Shown: positions 19,281 to 40,992, counted from the stretch's first letter. The stretch is DNA of 64,000 nt from Naegleria gruberi (GCA_000004985.1 GG738863.1), one strand, 5' to 3'. The notes: generated by a model not told the origin, from the sequence alone. Translations and numbers: made by a program.

Positions 19281-20097
19281 NNNNNNNNNNNNNNNNNNNN
19301 NNNNNNNNNNNNNNNNNNNNNNNNNNNNNNNNNNNNNNNNNNNNNNNNNNNNNNNNNNNNNNNNNNNNNNNNNNNNNNNNNNNNNNNNNNNNNNNNNNNN
19401 NNNNNNNNNNNNNNNNNNNNNNNNNNNNNNNNNNNNNNNNNNNNNNNNNNNNNNNNNNNNNNNNNNNNNNNNNNNNNNNNNNNNNNNNNNNNNNNNNNNN
19501 NNNNNNNNNNNNNNNNNNNNNNNNNNNNNNNNNNNNNNNNNNNNNNNNNNNNNNNNNNNNNNNNNNNNNNNNNNNNNNNNNNNNNNNNNNNNNNNNNNNN
19601 NNNNNNNNNNNNNNNNNNNNNNNNNNNNNNNNNNNNNNNNNNNNNNNNNNNNNNNNNNNNNNNNNNNNNNNNNNNNNNNNNNNNNNNNNNNNNNNNNNNN
19701 NNNNNNNNNNNNNNNNNNNNNNNNNNNNNNNNNNNNNNNNNNNNNNNNNNNNNNNNNNNNNNNNNNNNNNNNNNNNNNNNNNNNNNNNNNNNNNNNNNNN
19801 NNNNNNNNNNNNNNNNNNNNNNNNNNNNNNNNNNNNNNNNNNNNNNNNNNNNNNNNNNNNNNNNNNNNNNNNNNNNNNNNNNNNNNNNNNNNNNNNNNNN
19901 NNNNNNNNNNNNNNNNNNNNNNNNNNNNNNNNNNNNNNNNNNNNNNNNNNNNNNNNNNNNNNNNNNNNNNNNNNNNNNNNNNNNNNNNNNNNNNNNNNNN
20001 NNNNNNNNNNNNNNNNNNNNNNNNNNNNNNNNNNNNNNNNNNNNNNNNNNNNNNNNNNNNNNNNNNNNNNNNNNNNNNNNNNNNNNNNNNNNNNNNN
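19281..20097. other. assembly gap (817 N)
   Basis: Run of n characters. ORFs reported inside it are artefacts. Confidence 0.99.
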
Positions 20098-23291: not shown

Positions 23292-25115
23292 ATGAAACCA
23301 CACAACAATAAGCGAACCATGAAACCAATTCGACCTCTTCGACCAGCCCGAGGTAACAAAAACACTAATTCCGAACACACTTCCGACCAACAACAACACA
23401 ACAAAACTAAACAAACCATTCGTCTCCCAACCAATCATCGAACTCTAATCAAGGCAGCAATCATTGGAAAGCAAGGAAGTCAAATTAAATTAATTTCCGA
23501 ACTGAGTCAGGGATGTAGAATTAAGGTCGAGGAGTCGAGAGTTGTAATTTATGCTGCAAATAATAATCAAAAAGTTGCTGGTAATGATTCTTTATCATCG
23601 AGTGGTAATAATTTGCAAATTGCAGTGAATTTGGTTCAATCAATTATTAATAATGTATTGTGTGTGTTTGAGCATCCGAATGTCATTTGTTCAATCTATG
23701 AATGTAATGGTGAAGAAGAGAGGATGAAATTAACAAGATTTGAAACTCCAATTGTTCTTGTTTCAAATAATCATAATGATGATGATAAAGAAGAAGGAGA
23801 ACAGAGAGAAAAAGTAAAACATCATCAGAATTATTATCGACTTGCTCTTGCTTCGGATGATAATGATGAACTGGCTGATGAGGAAGTGAAAGATCTTCAA
23901 TCAACAATACCTTCTTCTTCTTCTTCAATGGAATTCTCTAATAATGGTTCTTCTGCATCACATGAAGAGCAATTGCTATCTAATAGTAGTAGTAATGGTG
24001 GGGATAAAACTAGTGATACATCCTCATCCTCATCATCATCATTATTGGTGGAGAAGAGATTGGTCAAATCGGATCATCAATTATATTCACAGAGAAAGGA
24101 GAGACAATTAATTTCAGAGGGATTATCATCTGCTGTATCGAACTATTTGAAATTGGATCAATTTGAAGGAATGGAGAGAAAGCTTCTTATTAAGGTTGGA
24201 TTGGGAAGAAAGGTCTTTTATGATGCCAAGAGAAATGTGGAAATGACAAGTAGTATTTTGAATAGAGTTTATAATTTTGAATCGTTCTCCAAGTTGGATA
24301 TTGGTTATGGAAAGGATTTAAAATCTTCATTTAGATTGGAAATGGGAGGAGATTTTGCATTGAATTTGAAAGAATACTTGTTGAAGAATAATTGGAAACA
24401 CACAGAAACAATCAAGAGTGCCACATGTTATGTGGTGAAATTAATGCAAGGAATTATGGGAAGTGCTGGTGGTAAGAGAATGAGTTTCAAAGTAGTTCCC
24501 AATGGATCATTGGCTAAAATTGGAAAATTAAAGATTGCACTGGATAAGCTTTCCTATCTGGACTTTTGTAACTTGGAGGAGAATTGCCCAGATTTGAGAT
24601 TGAGATTTGAAACTGAACAGTATTCGAGAGAATCAACCGATGAAGAATTCAACAAATTCATTTCAGCGCTCAAGTTCAATGAGAAGGATCAAGTCGACAT
24701 GTCTGGAGTTCCTCAAGAATTGTTAGATATTTTCAGAATTGACAGTGTTAGAAATAAGGTTAAGGAAATATACTGCTTGAATGATTTAAAGATTACGATC
24801 AATAAGATTCTCTCTAACGGTAGAGGGTGGTATGAAATTTCCATGTCTTCATTACAACCTTACAATGAATTATCATCTTCTGAGGATGTTGTAAACGTAT
24901 TGAGTACAATGAGAAGTGTATTGAATGGTGTTTGTGGACCAAGAATACATTGTCCAATAATTTCGAATATAGAAAATGTTAACACCACAACCAAGAAGGA
25001 AACAAAAACATCTGCAAAACCTTCCAAAGATTCAACACCTTACTGGACTGTTTTAGGTGTAGCTGCTTTCTGCGCTGCTGTGGGATTTGGATTGAACAAG
25101 TTAATCCACAAGTAA
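23292..25115 (+). CDS. KH-domain protein with C-terminal tail-anchor TM segment (607 aa), function unknown
   Basis: Type-I KH-like LIKAAIIGKQGSQIKLISELSQGCRIKV near the N-terminus. Acidic/Ser-rich low-complexity middle. The C-terminal YWTVLGVAAFCAAVGFGLNKLIHK is a hydrophobic anchor followed directly by the stop. Confidence 0.5.
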   Translation: MKPHNNKRTMKPIRPLRPARGNKNTNSEHTSDQQQHNKTKQTIRLPTNHRTLIKAAIIGKQGSQIKLISELSQGCRIKVEESRVVIYAANNNQKVAGNDSLSSSGNNLQIAVNLVQSIINNVLCVFEHPNVICSIYECNGEEERMKLTRFETPIVLVSNNHNDDDKEEGEQREKVKHHQNYYRLALASDDNDELADEEVKDLQSTIPSSSSSMEFSNNGSSASHEEQLLSNSSSNGGDKTSDTSSSSSSSLLVEKRLVKSDHQLYSQRKERQLISEGLSSAVSNYLKLDQFEGMERKLLIKVGLGRKVFYDAKRNVEMTSSILNRVYNFESFSKLDIGYGKDLKSSFRLEMGGDFALNLKEYLLKNNWKHTETIKSATCYVVKLMQGIMGSAGGKRMSFKVVPNGSLAKIGKLKIALDKLSYLDFCNLEENCPDLRLRFETEQYSRESTDEEFNKFISALKFNEKDQVDMSGVPQELLDIFRIDSVRNKVKEIYCLNDLKITINKILSNGRGWYEISMSSLQPYNELSSSEDVVNVLSTMRSVLNGVCGPRIHCPIISNIENVNTTTKKETKTSAKPSKDSTPYWTVLGVAAFCAAVGFGLNKLIHK

Positions 25116-25450: not shown

Positions 25451-27158
25451 ATGATTAAAACACTTTCATTCATACTACTAGTGTTATTATCACTCTATTC
25501 TATTATATCTTTCATTAGAGCTCAAGAAAGATTCATTAATGTCAAGTATTCAATTAAAACTTTGATTGGAACTGGTGCTGGAATATTTAACTTGGATGGG
25601 TTGACTGGATTGGCTACTAATATTAATTCACCTATTGGCGTGTTTTATGAAGAGAGTAGTGGTGATTTGAATTTCTCACATACATGTAAGTTTCATACTT
25701 TCGAATAATAATTTTCATGTTATTCGAAACAACAGTAAACAATACAGTAAGAGTTTTGAGAAACTCATCNNNNNNNNNNNNNNNNNNNNNNNNNNNNNNN
25801 NNNNNNNNNNNNNNNNNNNNNNNNNNNNNNNNNNNNNNNNNNNNNNNNNNNNNNNNNNNNNNNNNNNNNNNNNNNNNNNNNNNNNNNNNNNNNNNNNNNN
25901 NNNNNNNNNNNNNNNNNNNNNNNNNNNNNNNNNNNNNNNNNNNNNNNNNNNNNNNNNNNNNNNNNNNNNNNNNNNNNNNNNNNNNNNNNNNNNNNNNNNN
26001 NNNNNNNNNNNNNNNNNNNNNNNNNNNNNNNNNNNNNNNNNNNNNNNNNNNNNNNNNNNNNNNNNNNNNNNNNNNNNNNNNNNNNNNNNNNNNNNNNNNN
26101 NNNNNNNNNNNNNNNNNNNNNNNNNNNNNNNNNNNNNNNNNNNNNNNNNNNNNNNNNNNNNNNNNNNNNNNNNNNNNNNNNNNNNNNNNNNNNNNNNNNN
26201 NNNNNNNNNNNNNNNNNNNNNNNNNNNNNNNNNNNNNNNNNNNNNNNNNNNNNNNNNNNNNNNNNNNNNNNNNNNNNNNNNNNNNNNNNNNNNNNNNNNN
26301 NNNNNNNNNNNNNNNNNNNNNNNNNNNNNNNNNNNNNNNNNNNNNNNNNNNNNNNNNNNNNNNNATTCGAAAGTTTGTGGAACTAATGGAAAATGTCTGA
26401 CAATTGACAAGTGTGTTTGTAAAGATGGATTTTATGGTCTTGATTGTTCACTTCCTATTTGTTTGAAAGCAGAAAATGGAAAGTGTGCTAATGATACAAC
26501 AGGTGTAACTGTAGAAAATATTGAAACAAGTCAATTGTCAAACAAATCAATTTCTCTTAGTTCAGGAAATTTGACAGAAAGTTCAGTAGTTTCAGTTTCC
26601 TTTCCTTCTGATTTTTCTCATTATATTTCCAATCAAACAACCTTCTCATCAGTTTCTCTACTCACAGCGGTTTCTACAAGCGGAAACAATTTGACAAACT
26701 CAAATTCTGCTTTCTCCATAGTTTCGAATATAATCACAATTTCACTTGCCTTAACAAATGGAAAAAAGATTCCAGTTTCTAATTTGGAAAATCCTATACA
26801 AATCTCATTCCAAAAACCAACAAGTTATTCTGGAAATTTGACATGCATGTACTTGGACGAATTGACCAATGAATGGAAATCAGATGGTGTGAAAACTGTT
26901 ATTGAACCATTAACAGTCAATTGTCTGACTTCTCATTTAACTTCCTTCTCGGTAATTGATATTAATCTCAGGAAGGAAATTGGAAAACCAAAAGAATCAC
27001 CGAGTGTCAGTAATCAAACAATTTCACAAAGTCAACTCTCTCAAGAAGCTATCATTGCAATCTCAGTATCAATTGCTGGAAGCTTCATTGTTTGTTGTGT
27101 TGTTGCAATAATCCTGTCAGCTGTTATCTGCTTAATAAGAAGAAAATCGAAGAAGTAA
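25451..27158 (+). CDS. single-pass membrane protein: signal peptide + (gap) + EGF-like + Ser/Thr-rich stalk + GPS (GAIN-type) motif + TM; interrupted by an assembly gap. Exon 1 25451-25685, 50-nt intron 25686-25735, exon 2 25736->25769, resumes <26365-27158
   Basis: MIKTLSFILLVLLSLYSIISF is signal-like. Donor ACAT|GTAAGT and acceptor aacaacag keep the frame open into the gap. After the gap: ...CGTNGKCLTIDKCVCKDGFYGLDCSLPICL (EGF-like), then a NxS/T-rich region, NLTCMYLDELTNEWKSDGV...NCLTSHLTSFSVID (GPS-like), TM IIAISVSIAGSFIVCCVVAIILSAVICLI and an RRKSKK tail. Paralogous to the gene at 37256-40992. Confidence 0.6.
25770..26364. other. assembly gap (595 N)
   Basis: Run of n characters inside the gene above. 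Confidence 0.99.
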
Positions 27159-27210
27159 AATAAACAATGATAAAGACCTTAACTTTCTAATTAAACTTAT
27201 TGAATTTAAT

Positions 27211-28686
27211 TTAAAAGTATAAATTCAATAAGGAATATTCTGAAGAAACTCCAATACGTAATGGGAAACCATAATGACCTGTTCCTCTGTGAGCATACAA
27301 TCTCAGTGATCCTCTTCCATAGAGACCTTGATCTGGTGGATGGACTTTGAAAATCTTCTTACTTCCAAATAATCTCAATGCCTTGAAGAGTACCTTTACA
27401 AATGTTAAACGGCGGAATCTAGTTCCAATATGCCCACCATGTAAATGGCCTGCAAAAACAATGTCAGTATCATCCTTCATGCTCATAGAGGAGAGAATAG
27501 ATGGATTGTGAATGAGGAAGAGCTTTGGAATATCTTGAGAAAGCTTTGGGAATTTTTTAGAGAGCTCTTGAATGTGTCTGGTTGATGAATCATGTCCAGC
27601 GAATGAGAATTGAGATCCCACAACTTGAACAAGTGATTTTTCTCCTTTAATTTTTGAAAGTCTTTCCACTTCCACAATAGCTTGGTCATCTTCCAATAAA
27701 ATAATATCATTTTGTCGGTAAGCTTCTCTTACCCTTTCCAAAACTTCATAATCGTGACTATTTAAAAAGAATGATATTATAATTATAAATAGTTCATAAA
27801 CCTACTTTCCTAGACAAGCAATTGTTCTACCTTTCAATTGTTTGAGAGGTGATAATGCTTCACTGAGTGAATGATCATCGTCGTGTGTATCCATTGTTTC
27901 CATATCACCAGTAATCAAAACTAAATCAATATTATCTCTATTGTCGACAATATTTTGACAGAGAGACTTGAGTTTTTCCTTACTCATACAAGTTCCCAAG
28001 TGTGGATCAGTAATTTGGAAAATTCTCAAAACTCTGGATTCATCTGTGTGAAGAGGTTTATCATGATGGTCAATTTCAATAACTGTATCTTCTTGGGAAG
28101 ATTTATCAATAGTTTCCTTTCTCAAATCAATATGAACGAGTTCCTTTCCAAACTTTGGTCCCACCACTGAAATGTACAATGCATGAAGTGAAATAGCTAG
28201 TACGAGTCCATTAAATCCAGCATCTAACAATGGCAAATTTACATTATTTACAAAGAGTGGCAATACCCATCTCGTTGCAATCGAGTACGGTATTACTGAC
28301 ATACTACCAATGAAAGCAAGAGCCAAATACCAATAACCAGGGAATGCAACACTTGCCAAATACCACCAAGGTTTCAATTTCTTCCAATGAGTCAACACAA
28401 ACAAGTGCAAAAACAAGGCAGAATTGAAATACATGTGAATTGGCACTGAAAAGAATGGAAAATCTCCAAACAAATTGTAATATCCATTTGCCATCAGTGA
28501 ATGTATTCCTCCAAATATCAAATAAAAGAATGAAAATCTCTTTTGTTTCATCAAGTATCTGGAATACAAAAACAAGGCTGCTGTTCCCAAAACTGATTGA
28601 ATACCAAACACCCAAGAACCATGCTCAGCAATCCATCCCAAAATTGATGAGGATGAAGAAGTAGAAAGAAGGTTTGTTTCATCCAT
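27211..28686 (-). CDS. polytopic-membrane metallophosphoesterase (calcineurin-like phosphoesterase); exons 27806-28686 and 27211-27757, 48-nt intron 27758-27805
   Basis: N-terminal ~190 aa are multi-pass hydrophobic. Then MPP motifs in order: ITDPHLG (D-x-H), LVLITGDME (GD), IACLG-N-HD created exactly by splicing GGAAA|GTAGGT...aaatag|TCACGAT, and FAGHLHGGH (GH-x-H). The first ATG at 28686 gives MDETNLL... Confidence 0.75.
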
Positions 28687-29376
28687 TTTATTGTCCAGTT
28701 TCCGAATCAATTATTTTAATTATTATAAAATTAATGATCCTCTCGAGATAGGGAATAGATGATAAATAACAATAAGATGTTGTTGTAGATGTATTTTTTT
28801 GATTGTTTTTAAAAATTGATTCTTTCAATGATAATGAATTAATTGAAAGCTAAAAGGACAAATTGAAATGTACGCGTATAATTAATTGGCGCACCCATTC
28901 CAACATCATTTAGAATCTCATGCATTCAATTTAAATTGAAATTGTGCACTCAATCTATTTGAAATCATGAACAAGATTGAAGGAGTATTCTCCTCTCATA
29001 GACCCACATTCTATCATCACTCACATTGAATTATTATTTGGATCGTTCTCAACAATAAAAGATTCTGATGATCGGAATGAAAGAATAAAAGGTTGTTTTC
29101 TGAGGCGGGAGCATGTGACATCATTCTTACTGATGCACCTGCGAGAAGCCAAGTAAATTCCTATATTGTATTTCCTAAGCCAATCCTCTCTTCCGAGACG
29201 AGAAAACTGGTGGTTTTGGGAGAAATCAAATTTCAAACACTAGCAAATAGCAGTAAACTTATCACATCTCGTGGTTTTATTTTTTTTTAATTTGCAAAAA
29301 TTGTGGTAATTCAATTTTTATTATTTTAGACAGGTCCAACAAGAAGTGGACTTGGGAATAATTTAACAGAGTATTC

Positions 29377-31275
29377 TTAATGGCGTGAGGTTGGTTTTTG
29401 GATGGTGGAAAGGATTGGCTTGAGGGAGGGATCAATTTTGAGCATGGTGTTGAGGAGGTGTTTGGAGTGTTTGTTGGTGTTCATGGAACGAATGGAATCA
29501 GTATTAAGCTCCTCAATATTTTGAACATTTCCCAATAATTCATGATTCATAATGTCTCTAATGACTTGTGGACTCACTTGGTAGAGTTCTTGAAGTATTA
29601 TAGAGCTATTTCTCTCAGTGCTCATCTTGGCAAGCTTTCCTTCAAAAGATTTCACAAGAGCTGTATGATCGTTGAGAGAACCCTTCTTAATAAATAGGAG
29701 AGTAAGCTTGAATAAAGGTTCTGCAATGTCACCATTCAGTTCGCTGAATTTTGGTAATATACAATACTTTAAAACCTCATTTCTCTCAAAAGGATTACAT
29801 TCATTAATGAGATGGAAAATCACTTGCTGACAAGTGGTATAATGTCCTACAATGTCATACTTGAATGATTTGAGGATGGCCTTTCTACCTTCTGGATATT
29901 TGGCCATTTTAATGGAAAGGAATTGTGAATTTTTGTTGGAGGAAATACTCAAAAGGTTTGGCTTGACCATCTCAATAATAGTAAGGGCACATTCTCTATC
30001 ATCTGCCACCAATGAGGAGAAGAAGAAGGAGCTAGTAAAACCTTTTGCCAAGTCTACAATCTTTTCACTCAATTTGTTCAATACATTAGTTTTACAAGTT
30101 GTTCTAGAGAAGAGGTAAGAGAAGGCAACAATTCCATTCTTATCTTTGAGCAATTCTTCGATTTGATCTGTGCTGAGAGAATCTATCAGTGAATCGAGAG
30201 TATTCTTTTCGGAAAATCCAATAAATGCATTAATTACATCTTTGTGATCTCTCTTCATGGATAAATTGTAAAAATTCTTCATAATGAGAGTAGAGGTCTC
30301 CCCAAATTCCTTGCTATTGGTAGGTAATCTAGTATAAACTCGTGACAAGGCAAAAGCATGCCTTTCATCTAATTGGGTAATATTGTCCTCGGATAGAGAT
30401 TTGATCAATTCCAATTTGATATCTACAGAAGATTTCTCTATAGATTTAGACAATGGTTGTCTCAATCTTTGCTCACTAATTTGTTCGTCATCCAAATTGA
30501 GTAAAAATTGAACCATCGGTTGTTTTACAAAGCTCTCTAAAGTATTCAAATGTATTTCAATCATTTGAGTGAGTGAATTGGTTGAATTTTCATTTTCTAA
30601 CATGATAAGCACTAGCTCAGAGTTGAAATTCATCAATCCAAGTAATTTTTCAATGTGGCTAGAATTCAATTTGGGTAACAATTTAGAAATGACTCTCGAT
30701 GAATTTTCCTGTGTGAATAAGTTAATTATATCCTCTCTCGATTTCTTATCAGAAAATAAACTATTAAATATAATATCCAATTGATGAGGAAGAGCTCTCA
30801 ATATCACTCTCTCCATAACAATTGATCCATTACTATCTATACACAACTCATAAATATTTGGTTGAATTTCATTAAATACTTTTTCCAATTCATCAATTGT
30901 AGCATGTCGTAACAACTTGTTAAATGATGTACAATATTCACTCGATTTGGCAAATTCAATAACATTTCCCGAGAGGTGTTTCAAGAGTTGTGAAATTGTA
31001 ATTTCCTCCTCTTCATTAATTTTAATTGTTTTTACTCTTGTAGAATAAAACCTTCTTTGCATTGATGCAATCAAACTCGAACTATTTGTATTATTATTTA
31101 CATAATTATTATTATTAATATGTAATGATGATGATGTAATATTCCTCTTCAAAATTCTTCCTCCAAAATTCAAAGCTAGATTTGATGCAAGAAGAACATG
31201 TTCTTTTCCGTGCAAATTCGCAAGATGTAAAAGCTTCTTACCACCACAAGCAGAAGCACGTAAGCCAATCAACAT
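29377..31275 (-). CDS. hypothetical helical protein (632 aa), possible mitochondrial presequence
   Basis: Continuous ATG ORF. The N-terminus MLIGLRASACGG...RRFYSTRVK is Arg/hydroxyl-rich. The remainder is Leu/Ile/Asn/Ser-rich with no motif I recognise. Confidence 0.45.
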   Translation of the reverse strand: MLIGLRASACGGKKLLHLANLHGKEHVLLASNLALNFGGRILKRNITSSSLHINNNNYVNNNTNSSSLIASMQRRFYSTRVKTIKINEEEEITISQLLKHLSGNVIEFAKSSEYCTSFNKLLRHATIDELEKVFNEIQPNIYELCIDSNGSIVMERVILRALPHQLDIIFNSLFSDKKSREDIINLFTQENSSRVISKLLPKLNSSHIEKLLGLMNFNSELVLIMLENENSTNSLTQMIEIHLNTLESFVKQPMVQFLLNLDDEQISEQRLRQPLSKSIEKSSVDIKLELIKSLSEDNITQLDERHAFALSRVYTRLPTNSKEFGETSTLIMKNFYNLSMKRDHKDVINAFIGFSEKNTLDSLIDSLSTDQIEELLKDKNGIVAFSYLFSRTTCKTNVLNKLSEKIVDLAKGFTSSFFFSSLVADDRECALTIIEMVKPNLLSISSNKNSQFLSIKMAKYPEGRKAILKSFKYDIVGHYTTCQQVIFHLINECNPFERNEVLKYCILPKFSELNGDIAEPLFKLTLLFIKKGSLNDHTALVKSFEGKLAKMSTERNSSIILQELYQVSPQVIRDIMNHELLGNVQNIEELNTDSIRSMNTNKHSKHLLNTMLKIDPSLKPILSTIQKPTSRH

Positions 31276-31441
31276 GTTTTTTTGAAAAAATAAAAATTTT
31301 AAAAATCATATTAAAAAAATTCAAAACAACAAAAAGCGTTTTATTTTCTCTCACTTTAAATTCGGAGTTTTTGTATTTTAAATATCTAAGAAGAAGAAAT
31401 AACATCATCATCATCGACAATTAAGAGTAAATATTATTGTG

Positions 31442-33787
31442 ATGGAGAGTAGTGGAGAAAACGGATCATCAAAAACAAAACAAACAATAACTAGAAATGA
31501 CGATCATCAACATCAATATTTGGTGGACATTGAATCGAAAATTAAAAATCATATTAAAACGTTGAAAACACTTCGAGATGAGACACCACAACAGACAACA
31601 TCAAAGACTTGTTCGATAACACCTATGGATATTTTCTTCTTTAATCAGAGAGTCAAATCATTCCAAATAACAACATGGTTTAATAAGCCATTCATTGTGA
31701 ATCCTTTACAATGTGCTAGGTATGGATTTATAAATATTGACAATGATAAGATTGAATGTTGTCAATGTAAGACTAAAAAGTTGCTAAAATCATCCTTTGA
31801 TAATATCAAAATATCGAGTGATGTGTTGGAAAAGAGAGCTTTGGAATTTTGTGAGGAACTTAAAACCAGTCACACACCACAATGTGTCTTTTATAATCAA
31901 CCCTCACCTCTTCGATTTACGCTCTTCTCTCATCAGGATACATCATCGGGAAAGAATTCCAACATTACCAAAATTCACTGCTTTGAATTCCACGACTTGA
32001 TGAAGAAGTTTAGAAAAATCAATAAGAGCTTGCACATCAATTTACCTATGGATCCAACATTTGTAAATGAATATTTTACAAAACACTCTCTCCTTATTAA
32101 TAGAATTTTGGATCAGATGCATGTTGAGGATGCAGAAGAGAGAGAATTGTACACTACCTTTTGTTGGTTGAGTATTTTTAATTGGCAAATTTTGAATAAT
32201 GCTGACCTTCCAACACTCTCCTGTAGACATTGCCAAATGACTCACTATTTGAAAGTTAAGAATAATTGCCTGACGAGTACAGAAAGTCTTCATCCACACT
32301 CAATGCACAGATGGTGGTGCCCATGTGTTCATATAAATAAGCTCGTAGTCGATTATGAACAAATTGTAGAAAAGGAAGACCAAAGTTACATCAAATCACT
32401 AACCAAACGTCAATTGAATGAAGAAGCAGGATGGAAACAAATGCTCGATTCGATTTCTACAGGTCTGTCATCAGAGAGTGAACTGACTCATATTCATAAG
32501 GACTCTCTTGAAAATGAATTCAACGCTGCAACACTTGTGAAAAATATTCTTGCCAATTCAATCTCATCAGTTTTTGAAACTGAAAAGAAAAGAAAGGATC
32601 ATTTGAAAAGTGTATACGATAAGGTTTATTACAAAAACGAACAAGTTACCAATGAATCATCCACAGTGGAAAATATCATACTTATTGAAAATAATCAAAT
32701 TGTTAGTGAAAAGCCAGCTAGTGAAATTACAATTATTCATGATTTGCCACTCTTATCAAATAGCAATGGTGTTAGTATTACCCCTAAAGAAACCAATCAA
32801 ACACTACTAATGGATACTTCTGATGATGACATTGAAATTGACAATTCTGAAATAATTATTGAAACTAGTGAGAAAATTCAACCAGCCCACTCGCCACCTA
32901 AACATATTCTTCATCAGACAACTTTGGATAATTATTTTCATCCAAGTGAAACTTTACAACCCAATGATAATAATCAACCAACAGAGGAGGAGCTAGTCAC
33001 AGAGGCAGAGCAACCAATTAACGTGCCTTCCACTGATGCTGCAGAGAAACCTATTACTACAGAAATGGGAGATGATAACTTGATGATAGATACAGAAATT
33101 ATTCCAAATATTGACACTACTACTATCACAAGAAATGATTCACCTCCTGAGGAGAAGGTACTCTCTAACATTACACCTCCAACACCAGAAGTGGAATCAA
33201 CAACAGCAGATTTGAGTACACCACTATCAGCATCAGGTCTTTCAGAGTTTGAAGAAAAAACACCAAAAAAGATGGATTCAACCAATATTCATACATCTTC
33301 AAAGACTCCATTCGAATCGAGTATTACATCACCATTGTCTAGTACGAGTGATATTGTTTCTCCCTCTGTTTTTAAGGGTACAACACCTAGCTCAGAGTCC
33401 AAACAAGAGGCCAAATCTGAAACCAAGCCAAAACCACAACAACCAAAACCTCAAACACCTTCCAAATCCAATTCAGATGAAAAGCCTAAATCCAAGAATG
33501 TGGCACCTTCTCCATCAACAAACAAATCATCCTCCAAAGAAGAAACACAATCTACTCACAAACCATACAAATCCAGAGAGTCATCTTCAACACAAAACAG
33601 AAAGCCCTCTCAACCAAGAAAACCAAGAGAAGCTAGTAGCAGTAACAGTAACAGTACTGAGTCATCATCTTCCAAAAAACCTGCACAAACTAATGATAGA
33701 AGTACTCGTTCAAGCGAACAAAACAAGAGAAAGAAACCAAGTGGATATCAAACCTCAAATCCCAAGACAAAGAACAACAAACGTTGA
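31442..33787 (+). CDS. zf-C3HC/Rsm1-type zinc-finger protein (NIPA/ZC3HC1-like) with long S/T/P/K-rich disordered C-terminus
   Basis: Two C3HC-like modules, ...QCARYGFINIDNDKIECCQCKTKKL...HTPQCVFY and LSCRHCQMTHYLK...HPHSMHRWWCPCVH (H-x2-WCPW-like). The C-terminal ~300 aa are low-complexity and basic. Confidence 0.55.
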   Translation: MESSGENGSSKTKQTITRNDDHQHQYLVDIESKIKNHIKTLKTLRDETPQQTTSKTCSITPMDIFFFNQRVKSFQITTWFNKPFIVNPLQCARYGFINIDNDKIECCQCKTKKLLKSSFDNIKISSDVLEKRALEFCEELKTSHTPQCVFYNQPSPLRFTLFSHQDTSSGKNSNITKIHCFEFHDLMKKFRKINKSLHINLPMDPTFVNEYFTKHSLLINRILDQMHVEDAEERELYTTFCWLSIFNWQILNNADLPTLSCRHCQMTHYLKVKNNCLTSTESLHPHSMHRWWCPCVHINKLVVDYEQIVEKEDQSYIKSLTKRQLNEEAGWKQMLDSISTGLSSESELTHIHKDSLENEFNAATLVKNILANSISSVFETEKKRKDHLKSVYDKVYYKNEQVTNESSTVENIILIENNQIVSEKPASEITIIHDLPLLSNSNGVSITPKETNQTLLMDTSDDDIEIDNSEIIIETSEKIQPAHSPPKHILHQTTLDNYFHPSETLQPNDNNQPTEEELVTEAEQPINVPSTDAAEKPITTEMGDDNLMIDTEIIPNIDTTTITRNDSPPEEKVLSNITPPTPEVESTTADLSTPLSASGLSEFEEKTPKKMDSTNIHTSSKTPFESSITSPLSSTSDIVSPSVFKGTTPSSESKQEAKSETKPKPQQPKPQTPSKSNSDEKPKSKNVAPSPSTNKSSSKEETQSTHKPYKSRESSSTQNRKPSQPRKPREASSSNSNSTESSSSKKPAQTNDRSTRSSEQNKRKKPSGYQTSNPKTKNNKR

Positions 33788-34500
33788 ATGTCTTGAACAA
33801 AGTATTCCACTAATTCATTGTTATCATTTGTAATTGGGAACAAAAAAGTATTAGCGGAAGCATGGATTTTGATACAAAAGGCGCATTAATGAAAAGAATC
33901 GAGTTTTAATACAAAAAACGACAATATTATTTAACGCAAACATTAATAAATTTGCCTTTTATGAAGAAATGGTGAAGCGGAGTTGACAGATTCTTCAGTG
34001 CAATGTCCATATTTTCAATCTATTTGTCCAGATGATATTTTTGAAATATTTTCCCTCGCAACACGATCTATTATCCGAAATTCGAAAACAAACAGAAAAA
34101 ATTATCATCAAGCGCCATTTGATATTCAAACAACCAATTTTACAATAGTATTGGTAGTATTGGAAATTCTTCATTACCGTTCGCTACACTTTTTAAACTG
34201 CCTTTCTTTATTACTGTACAAAACATTCATATTAGAAAGAATTAAAAAAAACGTCGTTATTTGTTAAATCGCCCGCAGCGAGTTCTTCCGAAAACCAAAT
34301 TTACGTTTTTATTATCTTCATCATTGTACGCCGCTGTTGTGCATAAGAATATTATTCTCATCAAACTATTATTGAAAAACAACAGCAACTTTGAAACGCT
34401 CTCTAATATTACACCAACATCATCATTACACTATCATTTATTAATATTTATTGTGAAATTATTGAAATACTATAACTACTACACCTTCAACAATTACAGA

Positions 34501-36438
34501 ATGAATCTACCAACAAATACTGCTTCTCCTATGGAAGTTAGTAACGGAAAGGCCCTCGATCTTTTATTTGGTCCTAATACCAATCATTATCAAAAGCAAA
34601 ATGTCTTACCATCAGTTCATCAATTTGAAAACTTTAGAAGTCCACCTCCACCACCTTATCACTTTCATACTCATGCTTCTTCATCATCTCAACAAGGAAC
34701 TCATCAATTGGGTTGGAAAGGTGGAAGTGGCCAAGCATGTGGTCATATGATGAAAGCTCCGAAGAGTAATAATGGGGAGAGTGCGACCACAACAGATGTC
34801 TTGACTGGATTGTACAAGACTTCTGATGCTATCTTGTACAACCATCAATACCATGACAATAATCAATACGTTGCTACTAATTACACTTCCATGGTTATGG
34901 GTACATCAAACACTACTTTTGATCAAAAACCAAATTGTACCACTACATCTCCATTTATCAATTATTCTGGTGCTGCAACTTGTGCTTCCTCATGGAATGT
35001 ATACCATTCAGCAAATAATGCGGAACAACACACTTTGCCTCCTTCTACTATCATTAACAATCACTTTGCTCATTCCTCCGTTTTCAAACAAGATCATTAT
35101 CAAGAGCAATATAATACCAATAAGCAACCAGTTATTGATAGAGTAGTAGCAGCGCCAATGTATTGTCATGACTCTGTTGTGGTCGCACGCCCTCAAAACG
35201 TTAGCGTCTCCAATGCTTTTGCATTGCCACAAACCAACAATAATATCCATATGAATCAATACCATTATCAGCTTACTAATTTTGCTGATGCTGCCCAACA
35301 ACAACAACCAACCCTTGATGTTTGTTATCATGATGAGAGTACCAACCTTGATAATTGCAAATGCCATTTGCGTATTATTCGTCCAACTCACATGCTTGCA
35401 AATATTGATGATCAACAACACAGCTATCCACTTGAACCTCACTCTAAAAAGATGAAACTTGCTGATTCTGTTGTTGAAACTCACTCATCCTCTTCAAGCA
35501 ATGCTAGTAACAGCGTTAGTGAAAGCACTGCTTCTAGAAAGAATTCCTTAGATGGTGTTAAACAAAATATTACTTCTAGTGAAACCACCAGCCCAGTAGC
35601 AGCTATTGCTCGTAAACCTATTGTTTCCAAGAAGAGTAATACTAAGAAACCAAAATCTGATGATAACTCTCAAACCAAGAAGAAGGTCACAACCACCAAG
35701 AAGACCTCTCCATCTCCAAAAGCTCCTGTAAAGTTCAATGTTGATTTGTCCAAGGAAAATTTGCAAGATACCGCTACTATTCCAATTCGTATCTTGGCCT
35801 ACAATCTTGGACTCACTAAGGATATTCAAAAGTCCTGGAGATATAGAGATATCAGAAGAGCTCTCTTTGAAAGAATGATTGATGAACATATCGAATTTGT
35901 TGATAATCAATTAGAACATTCTTTATTGAGAGAGAGACTTCCACACAAGTTGACTTATAGCAACTTTTGTAAGAGAGTAATGCTCCTTGTATTCCACTTT
36001 GTGGTCAGAGATGGTAAGGAACCAAAGTTCTTCAGAAGACCACTCGTTCAAAGAGATTACATTGAAAAGTTACTCAAGGATAATGATCCACACTTTTATT
36101 CACTTGTTGAAACTTGTCATGCTCATCAACTCCACAATCTCATGAATAGAGATGGCAAGACTTTCCAAGAAGCCATTACAATTGTCTTTAAGGATTTGAT
36201 CGATCCTACCAGTTTGCAAAGTTTGCATGGATCTTCCAATGCTGAAGCTTGTAGAAAGATTAGAAAGCCAAGATCTCAAAAGAAGTCATGCAGTGATGAT
36301 GAAGATGACGATGAAGTCAGTGAAGATGAAGACTTGGAAGATAAGCCATCTGCCAGATCAAGACGTAGAGCTAGTACTGACTTGAAACGTAAACTCAAAC
36401 CTGTCAGTGAAGATTCTGATGATGACGATGACTACTAA
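34501..36438 (+). CDS. hypothetical nuclear-like protein with acidic C-terminus (646 aa from first ATG)
   Basis: The ORF track starts at a non-ATG codon; the first ATG is at 34501 (MNLPTNTASPMEV...). Q/N/H-rich N-terminal half, a conserved-looking globular region (IPIRILAYNLGLTKDIQKSWRYRDIRRALFERMIDEH...), then a KKPK/SDDEDDDE acidic tail. Confidence 0.45.
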   Translation: MNLPTNTASPMEVSNGKALDLLFGPNTNHYQKQNVLPSVHQFENFRSPPPPPYHFHTHASSSSQQGTHQLGWKGGSGQACGHMMKAPKSNNGESATTTDVLTGLYKTSDAILYNHQYHDNNQYVATNYTSMVMGTSNTTFDQKPNCTTTSPFINYSGAATCASSWNVYHSANNAEQHTLPPSTIINNHFAHSSVFKQDHYQEQYNTNKQPVIDRVVAAPMYCHDSVVVARPQNVSVSNAFALPQTNNNIHMNQYHYQLTNFADAAQQQQPTLDVCYHDESTNLDNCKCHLRIIRPTHMLANIDDQQHSYPLEPHSKKMKLADSVVETHSSSSSNASNSVSESTASRKNSLDGVKQNITSSETTSPVAAIARKPIVSKKSNTKKPKSDDNSQTKKKVTTTKKTSPSPKAPVKFNVDLSKENLQDTATIPIRILAYNLGLTKDIQKSWRYRDIRRALFERMIDEHIEFVDNQLEHSLLRERLPHKLTYSNFCKRVMLLVFHFVVRDGKEPKFFRRPLVQRDYIEKLLKDNDPHFYSLVETCHAHQLHNLMNRDGKTFQEAITIVFKDLIDPTSLQSLHGSSNAEACRKIRKPRSQKKSCSDDEDDDEVSEDEDLEDKPSARSRRRASTDLKRKLKPVSEDSDDDDDY

Positions 36439-36628
36439 GATTACAACAACTATTGTATACTTGAATAGTACTATTATATATTGATAAATATTAAACTGAT
36501 ATTTTATTTATTATTTATTACCATTAAACCTCTTTTGTAAAGACGACTCGTCAGTGAACCGTTTAGAATAGAAACTAGTTGAGGAAATAAACTGTCACCC
36601 ATCACAATCCAGATCAAACATAAAAAAA

Positions 36629-36979
36629 ATGCAATCACAACGTAGTCTATCAACATCCAGTGCCGACCTTGTCACTGAAACATTCTTTGGCCAATTATCA
36701 GAGGAAAAACAACAAGTTATCAAGGAATTATTCGAAAGAATTGACAAGAACCACAACGGAGTTTTAGAAAAGGAAGAACTCAGAGGAATTCTCGAAGTTA
36801 TGATAAAACAAGATCCAAATTTAATTGAAAATTTGGGACTAAAGAATAACACACAATGTAATACAGATGAAGATATTTTGAATGCAATCTTTGATCAATT
36901 AGATTTGAACGGAGATGAAGTTTTGAGTTTTAGAGAATTTGCTGAACCATTTGCAAGAATGTTGACCAATCAAATGTAA
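36629..36979 (+). CDS. small EF-hand calcium-binding protein (116 aa)
   Basis: Two canonical EF loops, DKNHNGVLEKEEL and DLNGDEVLSFREF. AATAAA-like motif overlaps/follows the stop. Confidence 0.6.
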   Translation: MQSQRSLSTSSADLVTETFFGQLSEEKQQVIKELFERIDKNHNGVLEKEELRGILEVMIKQDPNLIENLGLKNNTQCNTDEDILNAIFDQLDLNGDEVLSFREFAEPFARMLTNQM

Positions 36980-37255
36980 ATAAATTAATTGAATATTTTT
37001 TTAAAAAAACAGTAAATATTTACAAGAAGCCTTATCTATTGTGAAAAATCTTTTCATCTCCATTTAGTAGTCCAAACGCACAATTGAGATTCCAATGTCA
37101 AACCTTAAACAACCCAAATTCATACTTTCATTGCAAAGATTAGAAAAATTTGTGCGACGTAGAAAGTTTCGATTTTCACAAATTAATGACGTGATGGTTA
37201 TGATTGTTTGCTAAGAGAGCAGACTCGCTCAGTCCATCCACTCATAAAAAAATAG

Positions 37256-40200
37256 ATGAACAACAAGATAGTTTCGGTTACTTTATTGTTCTTTCTAATA
37301 ATTGCATGTACTATAGAGTTGTCAAGCTCAGAACCAGCCCAATACACAATCAACAAATTGATTGGTCCCATTGCGGGGGATGGTAAGCCAAAAGAACAAG
37401 TTGGTTTCTACACCATTTACACCTTTACAATTGCACCTTTAAATGGTCAAATGATTGTAAACGAAAATGGAGCTGTAAAACAATTTTCACTTGATTCTGG
37501 CGCGCAAGGTTTAGTTTCTGTTATTCCTGGACTCAAAATATATTCTTCTTCTTCTTCAGTTAATGGTCAATCAACAGTGGTTTCGAATAGTGATGGAAGT
37601 GAATTGTATTACCTTGAAGAAAATTTGATAAAGAGATGGAAAAGCGGTGTGGTCAGTGTTATTGCTGGAAATGGTGTTATAGAAAATATTTACTATTTGA
37701 ACGAAACAGTTGCCACTCAAACTTTCTTAAATTCTCCAACGAGTTTAGTTTATCAAGACGATTGTTTATACATTGCTGGATATGGTATTGCCAAGTTGAA
37801 TTTAACCACTGGAATGATCAGTACTACATTTAGAATTGGTTTTATTACAGACATGTCCATTTCCACATTTGATGGATACATGTACTATTTACAAAATGAT
37901 CAATTGAAGAGATGTTCATTTTCTTCTGGTTGTTTAAATCAAGAGAATGTAATATCCAATTTGTTTATGAACACTTTTACTCTATCTTCAAATAGAAATG
38001 AATTATTCTATTTCTTTGGTAATCAAATTTACAGATTTAACATTACAACCAGAATTTCCACATCCATTTATCAAATTTCCTCATCAAATACTTATAAATT
38101 GGCTTACAGAAATGATATGATCTACTTTGCAGAAGGTTTTAAAATCAAGAAGAAATCAGTGGTGGATGGTTCACTTAGTGTTGAAGCTGGAAATGGATAT
38201 TATGGATATGTGGCTGAGAATGTGCCATCTCTACAAGCTGGTACTGCTGGTTATACTGTTTCAAGTATTGCATTGAGAAATGGAGAATTGTATTATGCTG
38301 ATATGAATATCATAAAAAGATGAANNNNNNNNNNNNNNNNNNNNNNNNNNNNNNNNNNNNNNNNNNNNNNNNNNATATTTTCAGTGGTTCGAATGTGAAA
38401 GGAGATTCAATTGCATTACAAACTGAAATTAGTCCTGGATCAATTTCATTCTCTAAAAATGGAGAATTACATTTTGTTGATTATTCAAATATTGTTAGAA
38501 AACTTTCAGATAATGGAAATTTGTCATATGTTGGAGGAAATCCCTCTTCATTTGTTAGTAGTGATGGTACCGATGCATCAAAAGCTATCATTTCACCTTC
38601 TAAAGTTATTGAAATAGGTAATGAACTGATTATTTTAGAGTATCAAAAAATTAGAAAGGTTTCGTCTGAAGGAACAATCTCCACAATTATTGGTGGAGGT
38701 ATCTATCCATTTGTTGAAGGTGCATTGGCTACAAATACCTCCTTTACATCACTTCAGGATGTTGCAGTCAGTCCAATTGACAATTCTATTTATTTTATTG
38801 ACGCTAATTTCAATGCTATTCGAAAGTTGACTTCTACTGGAACAGTAATTACTTTATTCAGTACTTCTACGTATATTAACGCAATTGGAATAGATCAGAC
38901 TGGAATTATTTATTATAGTACTTCCAATTCGATTGGAAAATTGAATCCAGAAACTTTACAACAACAATTACTTTATTACAATACTGAAACATCCAGTTAT
39001 TTTTCAGTTTCTAATAGTGGTAATATTTATTATTTCGTAAATTGTAAAATTGTAATGATTGGAAATGGAACACTAAATGCACTTGCTGGAACAGGCACAT
39101 GCTTAACAGGATCATTATTTGATGGAATGAATGCAACACAAGATATTCCAAATGTGTATTCAGTTCATTATTCGAATCATGATAATCAATTATACTTTTC
39201 AACTGTGAATGGTATTTGGAAGATTGTTGATGGATTCATTCACAAGGTTGTCCAATCAATTCCAATGGCCAATGTAACTTCAACTGACTCTTCTAAATTT
39301 TTAAGTTTGCCAAGTTCATTGCTAGTTAAATCTAATGGAGATATTTTATTCATTGATGGAACAATTATTAGAAAGTACGATGTGCAACAAGATAGAATTG
39401 ACAATCTCTATATTGGAGATGGATCTATTGGTCCATTTTCGAATACATTTTCTTATTATTATTTCACAACATTCTGTGAAAATGAATTGGTCATTGTAAC
39501 TTCCAAAGGAATCAGACGAATTAATAGTGAAACATCAATAATGACACCTGTAACCTTTCCCTACCAATTTACGACTGTTAGGTCGTTTATTTCATGTTTG
39601 AATAATAATTTGTATTTCCTTGCTACTAATTTACAATCAATCAAGAAAGTTTCACTTTTAGATGGAAGTATTGATCATATTGCAGGTATTGCAGGTTCTT
39701 CTAGTCCATCACCTGATGGCAGTATTGCCAAATATTCAAAAATAGTTTCACTCATTAATTCAAGAGCGTTCGTTCTTCCAAACCAGGAAGTATTATATTT
39801 TGAAGGTCTAAAATTGAGAAAGATTGGTTTGGATGGAAAATGGCAAACCATTGCAGGAAATGGAAATTCTGGAACAACCCCAGATTTTTCTGAAAATGCA
39901 AAGAATGTACCTTTGACTATAGCTTTTTCATATGCTTATTCAGAGTTGAGTGGAACAATTTATTTAAGTTCAAATGGAATTTATTCACTGACACCTTATT
40001 GTAGAGATGGATACCAATTTGAAAACTCATTCAAAACATCATGTATTCCAATACCAGTTATTACTTGTTTTGGTAAGCTGGCCAATGATTCAAGTGTTTG
40101 TTCATCACGTGGTACTTGTACTGGAATGGATAACTGTCAATGCTCAAATTTGTACATTTCCTCTGATTGTTCTGTTTCATTGTGTCAAACTGAAAATGGA

Positions 40201-40992
40201 AAGCAAAATACAATTCTTTGTCCACCTGCACCAATTCCTTCACAAACTGGAACTACAAATCAACAAGTCGCATTGAACGTGACAGAGAGCAGAACTGAAA
40301 TTGTGAAAGACTTGACAAGTATTGACTCTAAGAATATCACATTTACATCTTCAAGTTCAGTTCAAATCACATTACCTTCAACCATTTCATCTTATGTTTC
40401 GAATCAAATTTCAACTAATGAAACAATTCAAATCATTTCAGCTATTTCAGAAAAGACTCAAATCAAACCTCAATCAAGTAACACCAATACTGGAAGTGAT
40501 GATGAAAAGTCAACAATTTCAACAGTTGAAGTTGTAAGCAAAGTTGTGAGTTTACTTTTATTGAAACAAGATGGTGAAAAGATTCAAGTGACAAATCTCA
40601 TCAATCCAATCACATTCACATTTTCCAATTTGATAATTCAATCATTTGAAAAATCAAATTTGACCTGCTCATACCTTGATGAAACATCAAAGGAATGGAA
40701 ATCTGATGGATTGAATACTTTCTTTATTGACATTCAATCTATTGGAAATGAGAAACAATTATCTATTAATTGTCAAACAAATCACTTGACTTCATTTGCA
40801 GTTATTGACATGAATTTAAAGAAAGGAAGTGTAAAAACAGACACTCTTCCTACAACACAAGATAACACTGTCGTGATTGCAGCAGTTGTTTCATCCGTTG
40901 TTGGTGTACTCATCTTGGTGGGTGTCATTTCCATTATTATTATTGCTTCTGTCTGTTTAATTAGGAGAAGAAAGCTCAATAGTAAGGAATAA
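37256..40992 (+). CDS. large single-pass membrane protein: signal peptide + beta-propeller-type (NHL/YWTD-like) repeats + EGF-like + Ser/Thr-rich stalk + GPS motif + TM; contains a 50-N gap
   Basis: MNNKIVSVTLLFFLIIACTIELSS is signal-like. Many ~40-aa repeats ending in aromatic-rich beta-strand motifs (ELYYAD, LHFVDYSN, IYFIDAN, IIYYSTSN, LYFSTVNG, ILFIDGT). Cys-rich EGF-like CSSRGTCTGMDNCQCSNLYISSDCSVSLC. GPS-like NLTCSYLDETSKEWKSDGL...NCQTNHLTSFAVID. TM VVIAAVVSSVVGVLILVGVISIIIIASVCLI plus RRRKLNSKE tail. Frames on either side of the gap differ, and a TGA sits immediately before the gap. Confidence 0.65.
38325..38374. other. assembly gap (50 N)
   Basis: Run of n characters inside the gene above. 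Confidence 0.99.

Follow-up and report, generated by a model that had tools for sequence, protein, structure and literature searches.

The window analysed here, a 64,000-nucleotide stretch of AT-rich eukaryotic DNA (~33% GC) from Naegleria gruberi (GCA_000004985.1, GG738863.1), carries two genes about 10 kb apart whose products share one layout: a signal peptide, NHL β-propeller repeats, an EGF-like module, a GPS domain, one transmembrane (TM) helix and a basic tail (Table 1). An initial annotation of the sequence had described this layout, called the genes paralogous and placed gene 1 at 25451–27158 and gene 2 at 37256–40992, and our analysis bears out each of these points: gene 1 extends from an ATG at 25451 to a stop codon at 27156–27158 and gene 2 from an ATG at 37256 to a stop codon at 40990–40992. 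The C-terminal parts of the two products are 33.7% identical over 261–303 amino acids (tblastn, E-values of 5e-31 and 2.6e-32), and a hidden Markov model (HMM) of the family matches only these two loci in a six-frame translation of the window. The motifs given in the initial annotation occur as well: C-x-YLDE-x3-EWKSDG ... C-x-T-x-HLTSF[AS]VID is followed by a hydrophobic stretch of about 30 residues and, before the stop codon, by RRKSKK or RRRKLNSKE. The products are indeed single-pass and not seven-transmembrane (7TM) proteins, with one hydrophobic segment and a tail of 6–9 residues before the stop, and the linker between the GPS and the TM helix measures 20–40 residues in both genes. Signal peptides and TM helices were assigned from sequence and hydropathy; because the former are N-terminal and the latter C-terminal, both proteins are predicted to be type I membrane proteins.

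Table 1 Features of the two GPS genes in the window (positions counted from the first nucleotide of the window)
Feature	Position	Strand	Basis or remark
Gene 1 exon 1: putative signal peptide and start of first NHL blade	25451..25685	+	Translation
Gene 1 intron, 50 nt, phase 1, GTAAGT...AACAG	25686..25735	+	Splicing restores frame
Gene 1 start of exon 2, NHL repeat LNNTVRVLRNS, up to gap	25736..25769	+	
Assembly gap, 595 N, in place of most of the gene 1 NHL-repeat region	25770..26364		
Gene 1 EGF-like Cys module, C-x5-C-x5-C-x-C-x8-C then C-x7-C	26376..26486	+	Pfam, Cys positions
Gene 1 GAIN subdomain-B-like β-sandwich	26499..26966	+	Pfam GPS; family HMM E 8e-48
Gene 1 GPS motif	26841-26957	+	Pfam GPS
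Gene 1 H-L-T catalytic triad	26934..26942	+	Predicted scissile bond between nt 26939 and 26940
Gene 1 single TM helix (predicted) AIIAISVSIAGSFIVCCVVAIILSAVICLI	27048..27137	+	Hydropathy, best 21-mer mean Kyte-Doolittle 2.89
Gene 1 tail RRKSKK	27138-27155	+	Stop 27156-27158
Gene 2 5′ part: signal peptide (~37256-37330, putative) and NHL repeats	37256..38323	+	
Assembly gap, 50 N, within the gene 2 NHL-repeat region	38325..38374		
Gene 2 NHL β-propeller repeats, ~540 aa after the gap	38377..39999	+	Pfam TEN_NHL
Gene 2 Cys-rich/EGF-like module, 10 Cys	40000..40221	+	Aligns with gene 1 EGF module
Gene 2 GAIN subdomain-B-like β-sandwich	40276..40818	+	
Gene 2 GPS motif	40663-40806	+	
Gene 2 H-L-T catalytic triad	40783..40791	+	Predicted scissile bond between nt 40788 and 40789
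Gene 2 single TM helix (predicted) VVIAAVVSSVVGVLILVGVISIIIIASVCLI	40870..40962	+	Hydropathy, best 21-mer mean Kyte-Doolittle 3.13
Gene 2 tail RRRKLNSKE	40963-40989	+	Stop 40990-40992

What the initial annotation had regarded as an N-glycosylated, Ser/Thr-rich stalk in front of the GPS makes up most of a folded β-sandwich and is no mucin-like linker. As modelled, the former stalk and the GPS together form one folded GAIN subdomain B (GAIN-B), of which the GPS would be the last five strands, its place in the canonical GAIN domain (PMC3321182). We aligned 22 family members over this region (alignment A2) and compared the resulting profile of 190 positions with all PDB chain sequences. All 12 matches are adhesion G-protein-coupled receptor (aGPCR) GAIN domains, with ADGRG6 (E = 8.9e-6), ADGRG1 (1.3e-5) and ADGRL3 (8.1e-5) at the top, and the alignments run from profile position 16/46 to position 181, a span of about 130–165 residues that extends well beyond the 45-residue GPS. 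The family profile also retrieves bona fide aGPCRs. AlphaFold2 run on A2 produced a confident model with a mean predicted local distance difference test score (pLDDT) of 82.6, in which 125 residues score at least 90 and in which 12–13 β-strands and two short helices are preceded by about 33 disordered residues; a GAIN subdomain B is a twisted β-sandwich of 12–14 strands, and the GAIN domain described by Araç et al. in 2012 has 13 strands and 2 small helices in subdomain B and six helices in subdomain A (PMC3321182). The prediction covers the gene 2 copy, and the evidence for the fold of gene 1 comes by way of gene 2 and the family alignment. It supersedes an earlier model made from 3 sequences (pLDDT 66.3), the best Foldseek match of which was a marginal one to CELSR1 (E = 5.8e-3). 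In Pfam, the GPS model (PF01825, cut-off 22.5 bits) upholds the earlier GPS assignment for gene 1 (25.4 bits), whereas gene 2 scores just below the cut-off (20.7 bits, E = 6e-4). That the motif matches arose by chance was rejected on the Pfam scores, the matches of A2 in the PDB, the fold evidence and the family HMM.

A helical subdomain A, which comprises 2–6 helices in aGPCRs (PMC11697300), is absent: the AlphaFold2 model has no helix before its first strand, and the sandwich begins straight after the EGF-like module. From the final Cys of that module to the first Cys of the GPS (C1) there are 120 residues in gene 1 and 149 residues in gene 2.

The catalytic site of this minimal domain is well preserved. 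The initial annotation had reported an intact HLT|SF consensus, and the HLT motif is found in both genes, but the scissile bond of a GPS lies between the Leu and the Thr (HL|TSF). Across the 22 members of A2, P67, L141, I145, C164 (C1), W174, C199 (C3), T201, H203, L204 and F207 are invariant, and F149, Y166, G178, T205, V209 and D211 are nearly so. T205 is at least 90% conserved, with Thr or Ser at its position in 22 of 22 members. Y166, also at least 90% conserved (Phe in two members), aligns with the His-stacking Phe of latrophilin-1 (CL1), and G178, conserved to the same degree, is the Gly of the Gly-Cys motif. Both elements figure in a 2026 structural study, which describes a Phe two residues after C1 that π-stacks on the His of the catalytic site, and conservation of the Gly of the Gly-Cys motif (PMC13062082). 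The catalytic residues are kept across family members that share only about 30% identity. Furthermore, the strand motif NL-x-x-PI-x-I-x-F of the family matches NL-x-x-PV-x-h-x-h of the aGPCRs.

The canonical domain contains two disulfides, C801–C832 (C1–C3) and C820–C834 (C2–C4) in CL1 (PMC3321182). The invariant C164 and C199 correspond to the former. In the HMMER alignments, the C2 position, which follows G178, is occupied by V, L or I and the C4 position by the invariant T201, and the C2–C4 disulfide is missing. The first GPS Trp is replaced by L, F or Y and the second is invariant. As C2 and C4 were lost as a pair, this pattern is better described as an orderly structural variant than as decay. 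One family member, NAEGRDRAFT_72290 (P0123), has lost the HLT at residues ~440–467 (‘YSLERS’; CNTYSLERSIVVID) and has kept the rest of the domain. The triad is therefore not fixed merely by the fold, and as a non-cleaving control this protein would be a natural choice. Immediately behind the GPS strand (26943–26981 and 40792–40821; A2 columns ~245–258), the family has a conserved TSF[AS]VID-x-N-[FYL]-KK in which the Asp hardly varies and two basic residues form a pair. This motif might serve as a further site for a protease, as a contact close to the membrane or in sorting.

The propeller-type repeats of the initial annotation are confirmed by the TEN_NHL profile (34.5 bits against a cut-off of 27.1), and PorZ_N_b_propeller matches the N-terminal part of gene 2 (27.2 bits, cut-off 27), whose 5′ part is internally similar to 39172–39687. 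About 100 NHL-repeat homologues carry precomputed PF01436/PF25021 matches. The nearest relatives of the gene 2 NHL region (38377–39999) outside Naegleria are almost all bacterial NHL/YvrE-like surface proteins, with E-values down to 3e-34, and a bacterial origin of the NHL part of the ectodomain is a possibility suggested by this similarity. As for the EGF assignment, the Cys module of gene 1 is present as described, but its Pfam scores (EGF_Teneurin 22.3, EGF_TEN 22.0 and EGF_2 20.1 bits) lie just below the respective cut-offs; an orthologue of gene 1 (P0104, see below) has a precomputed PF23106 match in this region, and the EGF_TEN match of gene 2 is weak (E = 0.014).

Each gene contains one assembly gap, as had been noted, and the gaps hide part of the propellers. 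A third N-run of the window (19281–20097) lies inside an unrelated hydrolase-like gene. Two of the three N-runs fall in the two GPS genes, which jointly make up ~8.5% of the window (5.4 kb), and this clustering is suggestive at most as a pointer to the cause of the gaps, for which the initial annotation had proposed a collapse of the assembly driven by repeats. In gene 1, the putative signal peptide (~25451–25522) reads MIKTLSFILLVLLSLYSIISFIRA, and the spliced junction reads ...NFSHT|LNNTVRVLRNS immediately before the gap. The gap-free orthologue P0104, which is 64% identical to gene 1 over the C-terminal part, lies on a metagenomic contig (L001, 6.9 kb, 33.5% GC); its first exon is 72% identical to exon 1 of gene 1, its intron is at the matching position, and the sequence continues with VNHRVRVLRNNSG. 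From there on, NHL repeats, EGF, GPS domain, TM helix and short tail follow in a single frame, with ~975 bp of NHL repeats between the flanks equivalent to those of the gene 1 gap. Because this orthologue carries both flanks in one gene, the flanks of the gene 1 gap belong together and do not derive from different genes, and the 595 N are estimated from it to represent about 1 kb of NHL-repeat sequence.

In gene 2, an in-frame TGA (38321–38323) adjoins the gap and the reading frame differs across it. The TGA is probably low-quality contig-end sequence, and the change of frame says little because a scaffolding gap of 50 N has no defined length. NHL repeats of the same strand flank the gap on both sides. 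With the part after the gap, a paralogue from N. gruberi, NAEGRDRAFT_47033 (P0254, 1170 aa), can be aligned over 827 aa, and its NHL array is comparable in length to that of gene 2. Two deposited N. gruberi ‘predicted protein’ entries on one 467,654-bp scaffold, P0001 (1197 aa) and P0103 (330 aa), are 99% identical to the gene products. These Joint Genome Institute (JGI) models cross the gaps by invented splices, LNNT|CVCKDG in P0103 (window 25736–26400) and RNGE|FPGSISF in P0001 (38290–38440), and both public proteins are therefore too short (truncated or chimeric); P0103, the model of gene 1, is missing ~320 residues of NHL repeats.

A recent local tandem duplication as the origin of the pair was considered and rejected, as the closest GAIN-B of gene 2 is that of NAEGRDRAFT_47033 on another scaffold (46.5% identity, compared to 37.9% for gene 1). 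The 10-kb proximity thus reflects at most an old duplication. The genes that lie between the two paralogues are unrelated to them, which rules out a tandem array; among their products are a PUF-repeat protein, a zf-C3HC protein and a membrane protein encoded by two exons. In N. fowleri, two family members, P0108 (FDP41_006543) and P0110 (FDP41_006569), lie 26 locus tags apart on one 579,155-bp contig and have nearly identical GAIN-B, TM and tail sequences; this similarity indicates a recent local duplication or gene conversion, unlike the old divergence of the N. gruberi neighbours. Directly upstream of gene 1, a gene at 23292–25115 (+) encodes a KH-domain protein (Pfam KH_1, 25.5 bits) with a hydrophobic C-terminus, YWTVLGVAAFCAAVGFGLNKLIHK before the stop, possibly a tail-anchored RNA-binding protein.

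The two genes belong to a larger family, as the initial annotation had suspected, with at least 10 loci in N. gruberi and many more in N. fowleri and N. lovaniensis. The census is based on cluster look-ups and on an exhaustive HMMER search, in which a three-sequence profile was run against 1.84 billion representative proteins and returned 458 matches at E ≤ 1e-3, 34 of them at E ≤ 1e-10. About two dozen of the best matches span the whole profile and repeat the layout of the window genes, with NHL repeats, a number of EGF modules that ranges from one to many, GAIN-B, and a single TM helix with a short basic tail behind it, and the combination of one TM helix with a short tail is shared by at least 20 family members. 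The N. gruberi members are located on at least nine scaffolds: the two genes of the window, NAEGRDRAFT_47033, 75910, 72113, 46674, 74488, 72290 and 53244, and XP_002678376. UniProt lists several N. lovaniensis members as ‘GAIN-B domain-containing protein’ and an N. fowleri relative as ‘GPS domain-containing protein’. Of the other searches, a word-index search with the 263-aa C-terminal part of gene 1 returned 2 proteins only and missed gene 2, a limit of the index, and a homologue search with A2 gave no match at E ≤ 1e-5. An apparent member of 2552 aa (P0113) was rejected as a false positive: it is an ankyrin-repeat protein that reaches an E-value of 8e-22 only by the summing of 17 weak repeat matches. 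The HMMER match list therefore needs inspection.

The same search placed the GAIN-B domain in other protein contexts. In Naegleria, GAIN-B/GPS, a single TM helix and a cytoplasmic protein kinase are combined in P0134 and P0147 (N. fowleri) and P0185 (N. lovaniensis), and the same combination occurs in Amoebozoa, in P0146 (Protostelium) and P0173 (Planoprotostelium), and likewise in P0132 and P0245. We found no description of such ‘GAIN receptor kinases’ of Naegleria or Amoebozoa in the literature searched, and a paper on protist transmembrane kinases makes no mention of Naegleria, GPS, GAIN, NHL or EGF. In a protein of 2174 aa from a JGI metagenome (P0150), an ectodomain that resembles a propeller is combined with EGF modules, a GPS of the sequence CHCNHTTSF, seven TM helices and an RGS box; the name under which this protein was deposited, ‘tellurite resistance protein’, is a misannotation, and it fits the 7TM-RGS/GPS class reported for N. 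fowleri. None of the profile matches inspected is a Naegleria 7TM-RGS protein, the further matches being mostly multi-pass proteins of GC-rich protists, with one aGPCR and one kinase. A large set of unnamed proteins from GC-rich protists (P0138, P0141, P0160, P0174, P0183, P0184, P0190, P0202, P0210, P0217, P0220, P0223 and P0232) has an N-terminal GAIN-B-like domain with the motif C-x-[YW]-[WFY]-[DN]-E...W...G...C-x-T-x-HL[ST]-x-F[AG], followed by a conserved, unannotated multi-pass C-terminal domain. P0105 (2020 aa) is an aGPCR of the metazoan type in which six tandem GAIN-B-like units precede the 7TM domain.

Combining these findings, we propose that the two genes probably encode single-pass GAIN-B adhesion proteins that cleave themselves at HL|T and hold the ectodomain non-covalently on a membrane stub. 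From the outside inwards, the protein would consist of one or more NHL β-propellers, which form the likely ligand- or substrate-binding part behind the signal peptide, the EGF-like module, the juxtamembrane GAIN-B, the linker, the TM helix and the basic tail. In the endoplasmic reticulum, the domain would cut itself between the L and the T of HL|TSF, with the His as base and the Thr as nucleophile, through an N-to-O acyl shift and hydrolysis of the ester, the mechanism known from aGPCRs and polycystin-1. The new N-terminal strand TSF[AS]VID would stay clamped in the sandwich, and the large ectodomain (N-terminal fragment, NTF) would ride non-covalently on the small stub (C-terminal fragment, CTF). 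A basic tail of 6–9 residues is too short to signal and, because there is neither a 7TM nor a cytoplasmic domain, adhesion or recognition appears to be the most likely use. The ectodomain might then be released by a pulling force or by ligand engagement and serve a crawling, phagocytic amoeba as a mechanical fuse or shedding device. We judge cleavage at HL|T to be likely from the conserved site, and hold the role as an adhesive fuse with less confidence than the cleavage.

Several observations weigh against this proposal. Subdomain A is missing, while the entire GAIN domain including this helical part was reported to be needed for the cleavage of latrophilin-1 (PMC3321182); the C2–C4 disulfide and the first Trp are lost; the GPS of gene 2 falls short of its Pfam cut-off; an H-x-S/T motif is insufficient for cleavage, as BAI2 has HLS and is essentially uncleaved (PMC13062082); the cleavage is deduced from sequence; and the adhesive or shedding role is conjectural. 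The absence of subdomain A (120 or 149 residues between the EGF Cys and C1, and a model that is all-β from its first ordered residue), the lost disulfide and Trp, the uncleaved BAI2 and the CL1 deletions that point to a need for the whole GAIN would all suit an alternative in which the GAIN-B fold is only a rigid, glycosylated, non-cleaving juxtamembrane spacer and the proteins are covalent single-pass adhesins or receptors. We regard this alternative as possible, though on balance unlikely, since paralogues that are elsewhere ~30% identical retain the H, the L and the T/S together with the Gly and the aromatic partner of the His, since the triad is able to decay, as P0123 shows, and since the joint loss of C2 and C4 is an orderly variant.

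The conservation of TSF[AS]VID, the most conserved stretch of the family, admits another interpretation. This strand resembles the tethered-agonist consensus TxFAVLM of the aGPCRs (PMC12716839), and once exposed it might, whether tethered or shed, be an agonist of some other membrane protein, for which the GPS-bearing 7TM-RGS receptors of Naegleria would be candidates; the single-pass proteins would in that case be signalling partners that act in trans or in cis and not pure adhesins. The 7TM-RGS proteins of N. fowleri carry GPS motifs and EGF repeats (PMC9283941), and a GPS-7TM-RGS protein (P0150) was found with the same profile. Nevertheless, the structural role of the strand inside the sandwich explains its conservation and the matches inspected include no such protein from Naegleria, which makes an agonist function very improbable. 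Hardly any credence is due to an artefact, in which the open reading frames beside the gaps would stem from different genes or gene 2 would be a pseudogene. The TGA and the frame shift at the gene 2 gap and the invented splices of the JGI models are what one would cite in its favour; against it stand the arbitrary length of scaffolding gaps, the same-strand NHL repeats around the gene 2 gap, the 827-aa alignment of NAEGRDRAFT_47033 and its comparably long NHL array, and the orthologue on L001 with its matching first exon and intron position and its NHL, EGF, GAIN-B and TM parts in one frame. We therefore favour self-cleaving, single-pass adhesion proteins.

The initial annotation had set these non-7TM proteins against the aGPCRs and polycystins, from which GAIN/GPS modules are best known. 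The single-pass layout is real, but its novelty was overstated, given that UniProt automatically names congeners as GAIN-B or GPS proteins and that GPS motifs have been reported in the 7TM-RGS proteins of N. fowleri (PMC9283941). GAIN domains had also been reported in Dictyostelium and Tetrahymena (PMC3321182), and GAIN is accepted to be older than its fusion to 7TM in holozoans (PMC12716839), while a specialist paper of 2025 gives the aGPCRs and the PKD1-like proteins as the only families known to contain it, and 2–6 helices as a constant property of subdomain A (PMC11697300). Our literature searches found no paper describing the single-pass NHL-EGF-GAIN-B family; those that paired Naegleria with the GAIN domain or with NHL repeats yielded no papers, and those that paired it with the GPS domain yielded one unrelated paper. 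The novelty is thus modest, the two genes being ordinary members of a large Naegleria family already labelled in databases, and the practical weight of the finding is limited by these labels, by the published Naegleria GPS and by the deductive nature of cleavage and function. What the family adds is the extension of a module known mostly from animal aGPCRs and polycystins to a large set of single-pass proteins in the distant Heterolobosea. Having no subdomain A and one disulfide yet keeping the catalytic residues, the domain constitutes a natural minimal GAIN, useful to test which parts self-cleavage needs and what the module does without a 7TM domain.

A more far-reaching interpretation, which we consider improbable, is that the family preserves an ancestral, receptor-independent use of GAIN: a subdomain-B-only, one-disulfide, force-releasable coupling of an adhesive ectodomain to a bare anchor that would predate the fusion to 7TM domains, kinases and RGS receptors. 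The TSFAVID strand, exposed upon release, may then act in trans or in cis on the GPS-7TM-RGS receptors that the cell itself carries. If this were true, GAIN autoproteolysis would require neither subdomain A nor the second disulfide, and the view that only aGPCRs and PKD1-like proteins contain GAIN would need revision.

Among known systems, the GAIN domains of aGPCRs (latrophilin/CL1, BAI3, ADGRG1, ADGRG6, ADGRE5 and CELSR1) come closest. They share with the Naegleria domain a GPS motif with HL|T and an aromatic partner for the His, the Gly that belongs to the Gly-Cys motif, the C1–C3 disulfide, the NL-x-x-P[IV] strand motif, the TxFAV-type last strand and the placement just before the first TM helix. 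Unlike them, the Naegleria proteins have no subdomain A (2–6 helices in aGPCRs, PMC11697300), C2–C4 disulfide or first Trp, and one TM helix with a tail of 6–9 residues takes the place of the 7TM domain; a tethered agonist would thus find no target in cis. Membership in the adhesion GPCRs (class B2) was rejected, as the seven-TM domain was not found and one hydrophobic segment of ~30 residues leads to the stop.

Polycystin-1, the PKD1-like proteins and sea-urchin REJ resemble the Naegleria proteins in that they carry GAIN/GPS on non-GPCR membrane proteins (PMC11697300). The Naegleria proteins differ from them in having no REJ, PKD or PLAT match in Pfam and no multi-pass, channel-like C-terminus, and were excluded from this group because they end 6–9 residues after their only TM helix. 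Sea-urchin suREJ1 is single-pass. The GAIN domain of PKD1 has ~4 subdomain-A helices and an extra β-sandwich insert (PMC11697300), neither of which is seen in the Naegleria proteins. Cleavage of proteins of the polycystin-1 type yields a non-covalent NTF–CTF pair (PMC11697300; PMC4810088). The 7TM-RGS proteins of N. fowleri (Bosch et al. 2022, PMC9283941) come from the same genus and have extracellular EGF-like repeats and a membrane-adjacent GPS; their published description sets them apart by 7 TM helices, a cytoplasmic RGS box and lectin domains, whereas the products of the window genes are single-pass, carry NHL propellers in the place of lectins and have no cytoplasmic domain.

Teneurins provide the best Pfam models for the NHL and EGF parts (TEN_NHL, EGF_Teneurin and EGF_TEN). 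They are, however, type II proteins with a YD shell, an FN-plug and a toxin-like C-terminus, none of which occurs in the Naegleria proteins, and membership was rejected on the type I topology and the absence of RHS/YD or toxin matches. The closest NHL relatives are bacterial, and the teneurin matches reflect general similarity within the NHL/EGF clans only. The autoproteolytic β-sandwiches of the ZU5/FIIND/Nup98 superfamily are cytoplasmic or nuclear and do not have the Cys/Trp signature of the GPS; GAIN domains score above them and are the sole sequence-level matches. The SEA domain of membrane mucins is listed among the self-cleaving domains (PMC13062082). It offers a functional analogy only, given its unrelated fold and different cleavage motif (G|SVVV). 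In single-pass proteins, the SEA domain undergoes juxtamembrane autoproteolysis, after which the ectodomain stays attached non-covalently and can be released by force.

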